Shown here one piece after another: positions 9,266 to 53,494 of a stretch of 64,000 bases of DNA. Made by a program: the position numbers and the translations under genes. The DNA lies in the NCBI RefSeq assembly GCF_056746865.1, contig NZ_CM163382.1; one strand, written 5' to 3'. Under the pieces are notes generated by a model, which was given only the letters and a program-made list of their open reading frames with translations, made no database searches and had not been told where the DNA came from. Position 1 is the first letter of the stretch; every line of letters starts with the position of its first letter.

Positions 9266-9598
9266 CTAATAGCAAAATATAAACCGTCCCCAAAAAAGCC
9301 ACCAACCACAAACCAGACAAATACCGAGCGAGAATACATATACCCAAAACTCGAACATTTCCCGCATAAAGAGTTTTCTTAAGATAAGAATAATAAGTGG
9401 CGTAAGAAGAAAAAATGCTGCAATCATTGCTTGCAATATACGATCTTCGCCTGAAACGGAAGGTATACTGCAAATATTTCCTCCCGACTCAAGCATCCAG
9501 TCATACTTATTGAAAGCAAAAAAAGAATCTATTAACCAATAAGTAAGCATTATATATAGCAATGCTTCAAATATTGTTTTAATTTTCTGCTTTAACAT
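9266..9598 (-). CDS. ygiZ: Small inner membrane protein YgiZ
   Basis: 110 aa hydrophobic ORF MLKQKIKTIFEALLYIMLTYWLIDSFF; position between qseC and mdaB as in E. coli. Confidence 0.7.
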   Translation of the reverse strand: MLKQKIKTIFEALLYIMLTYWLIDSFFAFNKYDWMLESGGNICSIPSVSGEDRILQAMIAAFFLLTPLIILILRKLFMREMFEFWVYVFSLGICLVCGWWLFWGRFIFCY

Positions 9599-9925
9599 AT
9601 ATCAGTACGCTCATAAAAATCCATTTATAATTATCAACATGACACGTTGATACTTTCATCTTTTACTTATTCAAAGCCATATTTTCAATCCCCAAAAAAA
9701 CCGAACCAAACGTGTAAATTATTCCGGTGCGAGTAAGAATTGTAAGAATTATGAGGAATGGCTATCAGTATTGTCATTTTCAGAAAATATTTATCCTGCA
9801 TCGGTGAGTCAGAGTAAGATCAGACTTTTGCTAAATTCGCAAAAGACTTTGCACATTTTGCTAATTTCACCGTACCGCTCTGTGACGTACTATAGTCGGC
9901 AAACGTCTCACCTTGAGGTTAAAAA

Positions 9926-17816: not shown

Positions 17817-18977
17817 ATGGAAAGAGTCAGTATTACCGAGCGCCCGGACTGGCGCGAAAAAGCCCACGAATACGGTTTCAATTTTCACACCATGTACGGC
17901 GAACCGTACTGGTGTGAAGATGCTTACTACAAGTTGACCCTCGCCCAGGTTGAAAAGCTGGAAGAAGTCACCGCCGAACTGCACCAGATGTGCCTGAAAG
18001 TGGTTGAAAAAGTGATCGCCAGCGATGAGCTGATGACCAAATTCCGCATTCCAAAACACACCTGGAGTTTTGTGCGCCAGTCATGGCTGACTCACCAGCC
18101 ATCGCTTTATTCGCGTCTTGATCTGGCGTGGGATGGTACTGGCGAACCTAAACTTCTGGAAAATAACGCCGATACGCCAACGTCACTGTATGAAGCCGCA
18201 TTCTTTCAGTGGATCTGGCTGGAAGATCAGCTTAACGCCGGTAACCTGCCGGAAGGCAGCGACCAGTTTAACAGTCTGCAAGAAAAGCTAATCGATCGCT
18301 TTGTCGAGTTGCGTGAACAGTATGGCTTCCAGTTGCTGCATCTCACCTGCTGTCGCGACACGGTGGAAGATCGCGGAACCATTCAGTATTTGCAGGACTG
18401 CGCGACAGAAGCTGAAATCGCTACTGAATTCCTCTACATCGACGATATCGGTTTAGGCGAAAAAGGTCAGTTCACGGATTTACAAGATCAGGTGATTTCT
18501 AACCTGTTCAAGCTGTATCCGTGGGAATTTATGCTGCGTGAGATGTTCTCCACCAAGCTGGAGGATGCAGGCGTACGCTGGCTGGAACCGGCGTGGAAGA
18601 GCATTATCTCCAACAAAGCGCTTCTACCGCTGTTGTGGGAGATGTTCCCGAATCACCCGAACCTGCTGCCCGCTTATTTTGCGGAAGATGATCATCCGCA
18701 AATGGAAAAATATGTGGTTAAACCGATCTTCTCCCGTGAAGGCGCAAACGTGTCGATCATTGAGAACGGCAAAACCATTGAAGCAGCGGAAGGTCCGTAT
18801 GGCGAAGAAGGGATGATTGTTCAGCAATTCCACCCGTTACCGAAATTCGGCGACAGCTATATGCTGATTGGTAGCTGGCTGGTTAACGATCAACCTGCCG
18901 GAATTGGCATTCGTGAAGACCGTGCATTGATCACCCAGGATATGTCTCGGTTTTATCCGCATATTTTTGTTGAGTAA
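17817..18977 (+). CDS. ygiC: Glutathionylspermidine synthase-like ATP-grasp protein YgiC
   Basis: 386 aa; [32 protein letters not shown]. Confidence 0.85.
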
Positions 18978-19461
18978 TACTGTTCAATATTGCCCCGTTT
19001 ACCGGGGCAATTTATTATACTTCGCAAATCATCACCCCCATCTATATATAATCAATCACATCCATCACTTTTATTTAACATTAATTCCTAATTTAATATT
19101 AAATCGTCATATGTAAGCGATACTGTAATTAAATTAATCAATAAAATCACTTGGTAACCTATTGTTTTATGAGTTTATTTATATCCAACACCGCATCAAA
19201 AATAGATTTAATAATTAAAAAACAATGTCGCTGGGATCACACTACACAATATTGAATATTGTTATTGATATATTGCCCACCTAGTATCGACCAAAAGAAA
19301 ATATTTGTTACAGAGAAATACAAAAATTCTAAAACCAGTAAAAAATATTCATAACGATTATTATTAATACATTTTAATTCACAAAACAAATTTATTAGCA
19401 CCACCTCAACAGTCGATATTCATCATTATTATATATTTGCGTTATATAAGGAGATATATCC

Positions 19462-21258
19462 ATGTTTGATAAATATAGAAAAACTCTGGTAGCCGGAGCT
19501 GTGGCGATAACTCTGGGTTTGTCAGCACCGGGGGTGATGGCAGCAGGTTTTAAACCCGCACCACCTGCCGGGCAACTGGGTGCAGTCATTGTCGATCCCT
19601 ACGGCAATGCACCACTGACCGCTTTGGTTGACTTAGATAGCCATGTCATTTCTGATGTCAAAGTTACCGTCCATGGGAAGGGCGAAAAAGGCGTAGAAAT
19701 CAGCTATCCCGTGGGTCAGGAATCACTAAAAACTTATGATGGTGTACCGATTTTTGGTCTTTATCAGAAATTTGCTAACAAAGTGACCGTTGAGTGGAAA
19801 GAAAACGGCAAGGTCATGAAAGATGATTATGTGGTGCACACTTCGGCCATCGTCAATAATTACATGGATAACCGCTCTATCTCCGATTTACAACAGACCA
19901 AAGTTATTAAAGTCGCACCGGGTTTTGAAGATCGCCTCTATCTGGTTAATACCCACACCTTTACCGCCCAAGGTTCCGATCTCCACTGGCATGGTGAGAA
20001 AGATAAAAATGCCGGTATCCTTGATGCGGGTCCGGCAACCGGCGCACTACCTTTTGATATCGCGCCCTTTACTTTCATTGTCGATACCGAAGGTGAATAC
20101 CGCTGGTGGCTGGATCAAGACACTTTCTACGATGGTCGTGACCGCGATATCAACAAGCGTGGTTATCTGATGGGTATCCGCGAAACACCACGCGGCACCT
20201 TTACCGCTGTACAAGGTCAGCACTGGTACGAGTTCGACATGATGGGGCAGGTGCTCGAAGATCACAAACTACCGCGCGGATTTGCTGACGCCACTCATGA
20301 GTCCATTGAGACGCCTAATGGCACAGTATTGTTGCGCGTAGGTAAGAGCAATTACCGTCGCGATGACGGCGTACACGTCACCACCATTCGTGACCATATC
20401 CTCGAAGTCGATAAATCTGGTCGCGTTGTCGATGTATGGGATCTGACCAAGATCCTCGATCCGAAACGCGATGCACTGCTCGGCGCGCTGGATGCAGGTG
20501 CAGTTTGCGTTAACGTTGACCTTGCCCATGCAGGACAACAGGCAAAACTGGAACCGGATACACCGTTCGGCGACGCGCTGGGTGTAGGGCCAGGTCGTAA
20601 CTGGGCGCACGTTAACTCAATCGCCTATGACGCAAAAGATGACTCAATCATCCTCTCCTCTCGCCACCAGGGTGTTGTGAAAATTGGTCGTGATAAGCAA
20701 GTGAAATGGATCCTTGCGCCCTCTAAAGGTTGGGAAAAACCGCTGGCCAGCAAGCTGCTGAAACCGGTTGATGCTAACGGTAAGCCAATTACCTGTAACG
20801 AAAATGGCCTGTGCGAAAACTCAGACTTCGACTTTACCTACACCCAGCATACCGCCTGGATTTCCAGCAAAGGAACGCTCACCATTTTTGATAATGGCGA
20901 TGGGCGTCATCTGGAACAACCTGCCTTACCAACCATGAAATACTCCCGCTTTGTGGAATATAAGATTGATGAGAAGAAAGGCACCGTTCAGCAAGTGTGG
21001 GAATACGGTAAAGAACGTGGCTACGATTTCTATAGCCCGATTACCTCCATCATTGAATATCAAGCCGACCGTAACACCATGTTTGGCTTCGGTGGTTCTA
21101 TTCATTTGTTCGATGTCGGGCAGCCAACCGTCGGTAAGTTGAACGAAATCGATTACAAAACCAAAGAAGTGAAAGTGGAAATCGACGTGCTGTCAGATAA
21201 ACCCAATCAGACTCACTATCGTGCACTGTTAGTCCGTCCACAACAGATGTTCAAATAA
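19462..21258 (+). CDS. assT: Arylsulfate sulfotransferase (periplasmic, signal peptide)
   Basis: 598 aa; signal peptide MFDKYRKTLVAGAVAITLGLSAPGVMA; family recognised from translation; followed by dedicated DsbL/DsbI genes. Confidence 0.85.
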   Translation: MFDKYRKTLVAGAVAITLGLSAPGVMAAGFKPAPPAGQLGAVIVDPYGNAPLTALVDLDSHVISDVKVTVHGKGEKGVEISYPVGQESLKTYDGVPIFGLYQKFANKVTVEWKENGKVMKDDYVVHTSAIVNNYMDNRSISDLQQTKVIKVAPGFEDRLYLVNTHTFTAQGSDLHWHGEKDKNAGILDAGPATGALPFDIAPFTFIVDTEGEYRWWLDQDTFYDGRDRDINKRGYLMGIRETPRGTFTAVQGQHWYEFDMMGQVLEDHKLPRGFADATHESIETPNGTVLLRVGKSNYRRDDGVHVTTIRDHILEVDKSGRVVDVWDLTKILDPKRDALLGALDAGAVCVNVDLAHAGQQAKLEPDTPFGDALGVGPGRNWAHVNSIAYDAKDDSIILSSRHQGVVKIGRDKQVKWILAPSKGWEKPLASKLLKPVDANGKPITCNENGLCENSDFDFTYTQHTAWISSKGTLTIFDNGDGRHLEQPALPTMKYSRFVEYKIDEKKGTVQQVWEYGKERGYDFYSPITSIIEYQADRNTMFGFGGSIHLFDVGQPTVGKLNEIDYKTKEVKVEIDVLSDKPNQTHYRALLVRPQQMFK

Positions 21259-21275
21259 TTAAGAAGGGAATAAAA

Positions 21276-21944
21276 ATGTCGAAATTAGGGATCTCATCAC
21301 TATTTAAAACCATACTGCTTACCGCAGCTTTGGCTGTTTCATTTACCGCTTCTGCATTTACCGAAGGCACGGATTACATGGTTCTGGAAAAACCTATTCC
21401 GAATGCCGACAAAACGCTGATTAAGGTATTTAGCTACGCCTGCCCGTTCTGTTACAAGTACGACAAAGCGGTTACCGGTCCGGTATCGGAAAAAGTGAAA
21501 GATATCGTTGCTTTTACTCCATTCCATCTGGAAACAAAAGGTGAATACGGCAAACAAGCAAGCGAAGTCTTTGCGGTCTTGATCAATAAAGATAAAGCAG
21601 CAGGTATTTCATTATTTGATGCTAACTCTCAGTTTAAGAAAGCCAAGTTTGCTTATTACGCGGCTTATCATGACAAAAAAGAACGCTGGTCTGATGGTAA
21701 AGATCCGGCTGCCTTTATCAAAACCGGACTGGACGCCGCAGGTATGAGTCAGGCCGATTTTGAAGCCGCGCTGAAAGAGCCTGCAGTTCAGGAAACGCTG
21801 GAAAAATGGAAAGCCTCTTATGAAGTTGCAAAAATCCAGGGCGTTCCGGCGTATGTCGTCAATGGTAAATACCTGATCTACACCAAGAGTATTAAATCTA
21901 TTGACTCAATGGCAGACCTTATCCGCGAGTTAGCAAGCAAATAA
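21276..21944 (+). CDS. dsbL: Periplasmic thiol:disulfide oxidoreductase DsbL (DsbA paralogue)
   Basis: 222 aa; signal peptide and CPFC active-site motif ([14 protein letters not shown]). Confidence 0.8.
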
Positions 21945-21958
21945 CAGGGAAACAGGCT

Positions 21959-22630
21959 ATGGGTATTAAGGGAATGTGGAAAGACCTTCGCACTTCACCG
22001 GTGGACACGCTGGTAAGATGGCAAGAACAACGTTTTTTGTGGTTGTTAATGGCCATTGCGATGGGCGCGTTAATTATCCTGGCGCACTCTTTCTTCCAGA
22101 TCTATCTCTACATGGCACCCTGTGAGCAATGTGTATACATTCGCTACGCCATGTTTGTGATGGTTATTGGAGGATTGGTTGCAGCGATCAACCCAAAGAA
22201 CATCATCCTAAAGCTAATTGGCTGCGTGATGGCATTTTACGGCAGCATTTTGGGACTGAAGTTTTCGCTCAAACTGAACGATATCCACCATGCAGTACAT
22301 AATCCGGATCCCGATTCACTGTTTGGCGTACAGGGTTGCTCTACCGATCCAACTTTTCCCTTTAACCTGCCGCTGGCACAGTGGGCACCAAATTGGTTCA
22401 AGCCTACCGGGGATTGTGGCTATGACGCACCAATCGTTCCTGATGGCGTCACACTGAGCAGCACGCAACAGTGGTTTGTGGAAATGTATCAGCAATCTGA
22501 AGGCTGGTATCTGCTACCACCATGGCATTTTATGAATATGGCTCAGGCTTGTATGCTGGCTTTTGGTATGTGTCTGGTGCTGCTGGTCATTATGAGTGGC
22601 GCATGGGCGCTTAAAATCATCAGAGGCTAA
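21959..22630 (+). CDS. dsbI: Membrane disulfide oxidoreductase DsbI (DsbB paralogue)
   Basis: 223 aa polytopic membrane protein with paired cysteines (CEQC) immediately downstream of dsbL. Confidence 0.8.
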
Positions 22631-22675
22631 CTCAGCAACACCCGAAGCCAGTCGTTCTGGCTTCGGGTTCTTTTA

Positions 22676-24608: not shown

Positions 24609-24869
24609 CCTTTTACCCTTAATATTTAACAATACTAAACATTTAGCGCATAAATTTCACATATCCTTTTTCGGATATATTCATATGGTCGCATAATAAC
24701 GGAACAATTATATGATTTTGATCATAATGAAAAAGAATGCCTGATATTAATGAAATTTTCTCATAGAAAGAGAAGCGGAATTAACATCTTGCATAGCAGG
24801 GAAAAATAAAAACCGAAGCCTGCTACAACTTCGGTTTCTTGATTAAGGCAGTAAATTAAGCAGCGGTTT

Positions 24870-53017: not shown

Positions 53018-53494
53018 TTAAAGCAGACCGTGTTCCGCAAAGGAGAAAACCTGGCTGCCACCGACTATCAGATGGTCCGGTACCCGGATATCCACCAGGC
53101 CCAGTGCCTGTACCAGACGTTCCGTGATAAGGCGGTCTGCCTTGCTGGGTGTGACTTCACCGGACGGGTGATTGTGTGCCAGCACCACGGCAGCGGCATT
53201 GTGGTACAGGGCACGTTTAATCACTTCCCGGGGATGGACTTCCGTGCGGTTGATGGTGCCGGTGAAGAGGGTTTCACCGGCAATCAGCTGATTCTGGTTG
53301 TTCAGATACAGCACCCGGAACTCTTCCCGCTCCAGTCCCGCCATGTTCAGAATCAGCCACTCCCGTGCCGCATGCGTGGAGGTGAAGGCCACGCCGGGTT
53401 CATGAAGATGGCGGTCCAGGGTTTTCAGGGCCCGCTGAATGAGGCTGCGCTCGCCGGGCGTCATCTCTCCGGGCAGAAAAGAAAGCTGTTGCAT
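53018..53494 (-). CDS. RadC-like JAB-domain protein (YeeS/YfjY family)
   Basis: 158 aa; JAMM motif HNHPSGEVTPSKAD. Confidence 0.85.
   Translation of the reverse strand: MQQLSFLPGEMTPGERSLIQRALKTLDRHLHEPGVAFTSTHAAREWLILNMAGLEREEFRVLYLNNQNQLIAGETLFTGTINRTEVHPREVIKRALYHNAAAVVLAHNHPSGEVTPSKADRLITERLVQALGLVDIRVPDHLIVGGSQVFSFAEHGLL

Follow-up and report, generated by a model that had tools for sequence, protein, structure and literature searches.

The 484 bp between ygiC and assT (positions 18978–19461, the exact gap from the ygiC stop codon, which ends at 18977, to the assT ATG at 19462) are probably a conditionally silent, AT-rich and activator-dependent promoter of an accessory operon. On balance, we read the interval as a composite intergenic control region of assT-dsbL-dsbI, in which the terminator of ygiC, an AT-rich spacer, a conserved promoter core and a predicted 5′ untranslated region (UTR) follow one another. 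The window, i.e. the whole stretch of 64,000 nucleotides that was analysed, matched E. coli strain 118UI, which was isolated from urine, at 100% identity.

Extraintestinal and gut E. coli carry AssT as an accessory enzyme of the periplasm. Its substrates are phenolic sulfates, and it serves as a reporter in screens for DsbA inhibitors. Knowing what turns on the chromosomal gene, which is silent in the laboratory, would help to define its natural role. The proposed anatomy provides specific targets (the dyad, the −35 and −10 hexamers, the predicted start and the AT-rich flanks), plus two natural alleles for direct comparison. The locus illustrates known regulatory principles and challenges none. 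It is an ordinary example of known regulatory DNA.

The assT cassette and its chromosomal sites

The cassette ends at 22675, adjoining the ygiD stop codon. In BL21 the spacer between ygiC and ygiD is only 37 bp, and the block 18978–22675 stands in its place here. No feature was annotated under 18978–19461 in any of the RefSeq records listed.

The region had been described as horizontally acquired. The distribution of the cassette supported this in part. Of 5426 complete E. coli genomes, 1508 carried it and 72% were without it, and in Citrobacter, Salmonella and Intestinirhabdus it occupied another site, after zupT-yqiD. On the other hand, all the Escherichia species sampled had it at the same site between ygiC and ygiD, including E. 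albertii, E. whittamii and a cryptic Escherichia clade. The GC content of its coding sequences (0.44–0.49) was only slightly under that of the neighbors (0.50–0.53). In Pseudocitrobacter, the cassette was also between ygiC and ygiD.

The assT cluster of S. Typhi (2012, J Bacteriol 194:2254, summarized in PMC4264507) is an orthologous operon, with the identical three genes in the identical order. The AssT encoded here was ~86% identical to the S. arizonae protein. As in E. coli, an AT-rich region of several hundred bp precedes assT in Salmonella. The contexts differ, in that the Salmonella cassette shares its upstream region with the divergent yqiD, whereas the E. coli cassette is inserted between ygiC and ygiD.

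In strain Z1323CEC0015, a chicken isolate, assT was annotated as frameshifted (a pseudogene; L057:2763-4560), and the upstream region was intact.

Base composition

The original prediction had described an extremely AT-rich stretch of about 480 bp with long A/T tracts. This was borne out. The GC content of the 484 bp was 0.271 (73% AT), versus 0.5125 across the 64-kb window. Runs composed only of A and T reached 17 bp, and there were 12 tracts of at least four A or at least four T.

The lowest-GC 484-bp stretch in the 64 kb fell at this locus (GC 0.254, start 19008). A single other 484-bp stretch, near 9366, had a GC content of 0.32 or lower. Fifty intergenic regions of 20 bp or more were annotated in the window. 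The gap upstream of assT was the longest of them, and no other one above 30 bp had so low a GC content. Their median length was 114 bp, with a GC content of 0.49. The second-longest one, between aer and ygjG (53045–53461, 417 bp), was at the opposite extreme, with a GC content of 0.60.

The conserved core and the predicted promoter

The features of the region and the operon are listed in Table 1.

Table 1. Coordinates of the features in and around the region upstream of assT
Feature	Position	Strand	Remarks
ygiC intrinsic terminator hairpin	18989–19011	+	9-bp stem, 5-nt loop; terminator scan; T-rich tail to ~19019
Escherichia-specific AT-rich spacer	19012–19212		GC ~0.23–0.28
Core conserved across genera	19213–19288 (~75 bp)	+	longest gap-free block of the 13-sequence alignment
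Dyad TGTCGctgggaTCACA (TGTCG-N6-TCACA), candidate activator site	19226–19241		CRP-like at 8/10 positions; LTTR recognition site also possible
Predicted −35 hexamer TTGTTA	19259–19264	+	sigma-70 weight-matrix scan
Predicted −10 hexamer TAGTAT	19282–19287	+	TACTAT in most relatives
Predicted 5′ UTR, ~168 nt	19294–19461	+	AT-rich, unstructured; predicted start placed 7 nt past the −10 hexamer
Shine-Dalgarno sequence AAGGAG	19448–19453	+	8 nt before the assT ATG; read from the sequence
assT-dsbL-dsbI operon	19462–22630	+	assT 19462–21258, dsbL 21276–21944, dsbI 21959–22630; RefSeq annotation of the identical strain
Operon terminator, hairpin then T run	22640–22668	+	described as strong

The core was common to five genera: Escherichia, Pseudocitrobacter, Citrobacter, Salmonella and Intestinirhabdus. 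Local alignment of 19201–19300, compared with shuffled sequences, gave z scores of 12 for a Salmonella-like contig, 9.7 for C. youngae, 5.9 for Pseudocitrobacter and 3.2 for Intestinirhabdus. What the Salmonella sequences share with E. coli is this core, with the dyad, the −35 and the −10 (seen in S. arizonae), and the region of the ribosome-binding site. The homology amounts to ~75 bp plus ~50 bp of the 484 bp only. The same core stands before assT at two chromosomal sites, between ygiC and ygiD and after zupT-yqiD, which indicated that it travels with the operon.

The sigma-70 candidates came from a simple weight-matrix scan of 13 aligned sequences. The pair TTGTTA and TAGTAT was the only candidate found at a fixed alignment position in all 13, and its spacer was always 17 bp. 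Proximal promoters near 19395–19445 were also considered and rejected, as none with acceptable hexamers was also conserved.

In all of 15 sequences, the GATCACA of the dyad was invariant, and the spacing of dyad, −35 and −10 was identical. The homology between the two cassette contexts starts just upstream of the dyad. This made the dyad the outermost assT element on the upstream side. Judged from the sequence, an activator site bordering a promoter would be expected to have such a placement.

Class I CRP-dependent promoters of the lac P1 type have their site centered at −61.5. From the center of the dyad (19233.5) to the first base of the −10 hexamer downstream, the distance is 48.5 bp, versus 49.5 bp in lac, which puts the dyad at about −60.5 to −61.5 from the predicted start. 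The dyad resembles the lac P1 arrangement also in its TGT-N10-ACA geometry, its perfect GATCACA right half and the weak −35 that accompanies it. It differs in its left half, TGTCG, which is without the conserved, key GA of the CRP consensus. Moreover, as a single sequence the match was not above chance; 18 CRP-like matches of 8/10 quality were found in the window, versus 28 expected by chance. CRP may recognize the dyad, going only by its conservation and position, and the same position would be just as suitable for recognition by a regulator of the LysR type. When metagenomes were scanned with the dyad pattern, only 6 of 120 among the matches listed came from genuine regions upstream of assT, and the others had arisen by chance.

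A second, near-perfect palindrome, ACAATATTgAATATTGT, was present at 19246–19262, downstream of the dyad and overlapping the −35 hexamer. An inverted repeat was partly retained at this position in Citrobacter (CAATA-N5-TATTG). This palindrome could be the operator for a repressor.

Silencing by H-NS and relief by an activator

The stretch had been predicted to be typical of promoters silenced by H-NS. An AT content of 73% over 484 bp is within the range that H-NS prefers. The AA/TT steps were phased at 10.5 bp, in line with the curvature that had been proposed as a check. This periodicity was exceeded by 0.8% of the shuffles, a modest support with five periods tested and no correction applied.

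A TCGATAAATT-like sequence is the high-affinity nucleation motif of H-NS. In the region, three matches to this motif were found with two mismatches, and none with one or zero. The density of matches was ~6 per kb, versus 1.2 per kb (about 5-fold), and AT-richness alone would give as much.

The DNA flanking the core was unalignable between genera, and its GC content was held at 0.19–0.31. Composition was kept and sequence was not, as would be expected if a composition-reading protein, for instance H-NS, were exerting selection.

For the orthologous cluster of S. Typhi, repression by H-NS and activation by LeuO have been reported, both varying with the growth conditions (reviewed in PMC4264507). 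In CFT073, the chromosomal assT has been reported to be silent under standard laboratory conditions and to be induced in urine from infected mice (PMC7810732). Constitutive expression, which had been named as an outcome that would speak against silencing, was therefore not observed. CFT073 bears another allele of the region, which is 78% identical, and its phenotype may not transfer to the window allele. In the literature, E. coli data on the derepression of assT upon removal of hns were not found.

ChIP-seq of H-NS in CFT073, grown in rich glucose medium, gave 798 bound genes (PMC9765446, Data set S1, sheet 1E). assT, dsbL and dsbI were not among these 798 genes; in the list, ygiZ is followed by C_RS29490, c3790, c3791 and further genes (PMC9765446). 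This indicated that there was no extended H-NS filament over the operon in rich glucose medium. In the table, the signal is averaged per gene, and intergenic DNA is left unscored. H-NS bound only over the 484 bp upstream of the 1797-bp assT could therefore be missed. The list does hold long genes, such as ygjI (1434 nt). It also holds neighbors that lie beside less AT-rich intergenic regions, namely ygiZ, the yqiD-like c3790, glgS and yqiJ.

Compared with the window, CFT073 (L061) contained two further H-NS-bound insertions, each at another AT-rich intergenic region of this neighborhood and both absent from the window strain. The first was an insertion with an Hcp/T6SS fragment after ygiZ, at the place of window positions 9599–9925. 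The second consisted of the fimbrial genes c3791–c3794, between the yqiD-like gene and ribB, at the place of 24609–24869.

The claim of silencing was supported in part, by the AT content, the phasing and the S. Typhi orthologue. From these data, H-NS likely binds the region upstream of assT. That H-NS is the main cause of the silence of assT has an even chance.

We propose the following model. A sigma-70 promoter, weak on its own and embedded in 73% AT DNA, would transcribe from near 19294 through the UTR to a strong ribosome-binding site. H-NS, possibly with StpA, would coat the AT-rich DNA and hold the operon off in laboratory media. Relief would come from an activator or counter-silencer. 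This might be LeuO, as reported for S. Typhi, or a factor that binds the dyad, or the two together. The factor at the dyad might be cAMP-CRP, acting from a class I position, or else a protein of the LysR type.

The bgl, ompS1 and cas operon promoters are the classic enterobacterial promoters that are silenced by H-NS and counter-silenced by LeuO. The assT locus is like them in having an AT-rich control region before genes of ordinary composition, in being silent in the laboratory, and in being accessory or variable. It differs from them in that the operon is off the gene-level list of CFT073 and its silencing is putative.

The absence of the three genes from that list would also fit an activator-dependent promoter without meaningful silencing by H-NS. 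Such a promoter would be off in the laboratory as its activator (cAMP-CRP, LeuO or another LysR-type protein) is inactive, and the AT-richness would reflect weak constraint and AT-biased mutation. The conservation of the dyad ~60–61 bp upstream of the predicted start, at an invariant spacing, agrees with this explanation, as do the assT loci of Budviciaceae and Edwardsiella with their dedicated divergent LysR-type regulator. It does not account well for an AT content held at 70–80% across genera in unalignable DNA, where the intergenic median of the window is a GC content of 0.49, or for the reported repression of the S. Typhi orthologue by H-NS (PMC4264507). In addition, dependence on an activator and silencing by H-NS are not mutually exclusive. 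We consider the explanation without silencing possible but rather unlikely, and prefer the silenced promoter described above.

The ygiC terminator and the AT-rich spacer

The hairpin at the upstream end folded at −15.1 kcal/mol (z = −3.6), and the z scores over Escherichia lineages ranged from −3.6 to −4.3. It was located at an equal offset past the ygiC stop codon in four Escherichia lineages (the window, CFT073, Escherichia sp. MOD1 and E. albertii). The stem was identical in CFT073, and differed in MOD1 and E. albertii.

A consensus promoter, TTGCCC-17-TATTAT, was detected at 18990–19018. We treated it as incidental. It is inside the terminator stem, it was found only in the window and E. 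whittamii, and it was weaker in the CFT073-type allele and MOD1.

The spacer (19012–19212) was unalignable with the upstream regions of Pseudocitrobacter, Citrobacter and Salmonella, with local alignment z scores of ~0 versus shuffles. The sequence at the same position in these genera was likewise AT-rich (GC 0.27–0.31). The z scores of ~0 against the yqiD regions also made the MAFFT columns to the left of the core untrustworthy for the non-Escherichia sequences. Where the cassette follows zupT-yqiD (Citrobacter, Salmonella and Intestinirhabdus), the left part of the DNA upstream of assT is the promoter region of yqiD, which is homologous to window positions 24609–24730 (z = 50) and not to the E. 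coli assT region.

The stretch 24609–24730, upstream of the minus-strand yqiD, contained a conserved, FNR/CRP-family-like palindrome, TATGATTTTGATCATA, at 24711–24726. It belongs to yqiD, not to assT.

In Pseudocitrobacter, a small yqiD-like ORF (MYIAWHW...; L007:3154-3525, minus strand; also L023) was present between ygiC and assT and is transcribed away from assT. Escherichia was without such an ORF between ygiC and assT.

The extra ~200 bp of Escherichia could be a functionless leftover, namely the scar of a mobile element or of a gene, perhaps a yqiD-like one, that has been deleted. The Escherichia-specific nature of 19012–19212 agrees with this, as does, by eye, the yqiD-like ORF that points away from assT at the ygiC–ygiD site of Pseudocitrobacter. 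However, the similarity to the yqiD regions was not significant (z ~0), and the left 230 bp were on this ground rejected as the remnant of a yqiD-like gene or promoter. In addition, the region is single-copy in genomes (median one place, maximum two), terminal repeats or IS features were not found in it, and the block 19069–19140 within the spacer was conserved between the two E. coli alleles while the neighboring sequence diverged. A scar is thus very unlikely.

The predicted leader and coding potential

The original prediction had referred to the whole stretch as a leader without coding potential. The term leader fits the final ~168 nt, which are predicted to be transcribed with assT, and does not fit the first ~35 bp, which are the intrinsic terminator of ygiC. 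For the S. Typhi cluster, several start sites were reportedly described in the primary paper.

The middle of the UTR (19296–19440) was unalignable across most genera (z of 1 or lower; Intestinirhabdus 3.2), and its GC content was still 0.19–0.28. The last ~50 nt were highly conserved. There, TATAAGGA was invariant in all 13 aligned sequences. The Shine-Dalgarno sequence was AAGGAG in 11 of them and AAGGAA in two, both from Pseudocitrobacter.

In C. amalonaticus and Intestinirhabdus (L015 and L020), a GC-rich, REP-like insertion of ~140 bp was present between the core and the ribosome-binding site. It would extend the predicted UTR to ~300 nt.

The lack of coding potential was confirmed. All six frames of 18978–19461 were closed, with 8–19 stops per frame and a longest open stretch of 60 codons. 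The mechanically called ORFs inside the interval were 55 aa or shorter, and a 64-aa ORF on the minus strand (19395–19589) overlaps only the 3′ end of the interval. The two mechanical ORFs that were submitted to Pfam gave no match. No reading frame of the region was kept open across the relatives, and a 3-base (codon) periodicity was not found among the substitutions.

The RNA of the predicted UTR folded no better than shuffled sequences (z = +0.41). A scan of the region against Rfam gave nothing above threshold. The best match, to the rimP leader, had 23.9 bits versus a gathering threshold of 47 (E = 0.25), and it lay over the terminator end and not over the UTR.

The length of the predicted UTR and the conservation of its last ~50 nt might suggest a functional product of the AT-rich stretch, either an RNA (a cis-regulatory leader or an sRNA) or a small protein such as a leader peptide. 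This is extremely improbable in view of the sub-threshold Rfam match, the ordinary fold, the unalignable middle and the absence of conserved open frames, codon periodicity and Pfam matches.

Two alleles of the control region

The variable 389 bp of the region occurred as two discrete alleles among the 1508 genomes. In 261 genomes they were at least 95% identical to the window (allele A), and in 1247 they were 60–80% identical (allele B). None fell between. CFT073 carries allele B (L061:18373-18856), at 3,618,373–3,618,856 of NC_004431.1.

Between alleles A and B, the intergenic region was 74–78% identical (76–78% over its full length), versus 97% for ygiC and 95–98% for assT. Within allele B, the region was 99.2–100% identical even where assT differed by 4–5%. 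This uniformity argued that the divergence of A and B is not simply fast drift. The sequence closest to allele A was the E. whittamii region (88%), ahead of allele B, and the assT gene that goes with allele A was nearer to the genes that go with allele B. This disagreement between the relationships of the intergenic region and the gene points to recombination. Both alleles kept the terminator, the block 19069–19140, the core and the last ~60 bp.

Oren et al. (PNAS, 2014) reportedly described how regulatory intergenic regions are switched horizontally in E. coli. The assT region is similar in its discrete intergenic alleles without intermediates, its flanking genes that are 95–98% identical, and the incongruent relationships. 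It differs in that both assT alleles keep the promoter core and the block of the ribosome-binding site.

It is a doubtful but conceivable extension that alleles A and B are functionally different regulatory variants that arose by recombination, with the dyad as the site of a conserved counter-silencer. If this were true, the escape of assT from silencing, and its timing, would vary among ExPEC lineages.

Distant assT loci

In Limnobaculum, Leminorella, Budvicia and Edwardsiella (L016, L017, L018, L019, L021, L022 and L052), a divergent regulator gene preceded assT, ~300–450 bp upstream. In the two loci tested with Pfam (L016 and L021), the regulator was of the LysR type (HTH_1 plus LysR_substrate). 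In the distant loci, a palindrome, ATCTCT-N4/5-AGAGAT, adjoined CCTACTATCG, which resembles the −10 region of E. coli, CCTAGTATCG.
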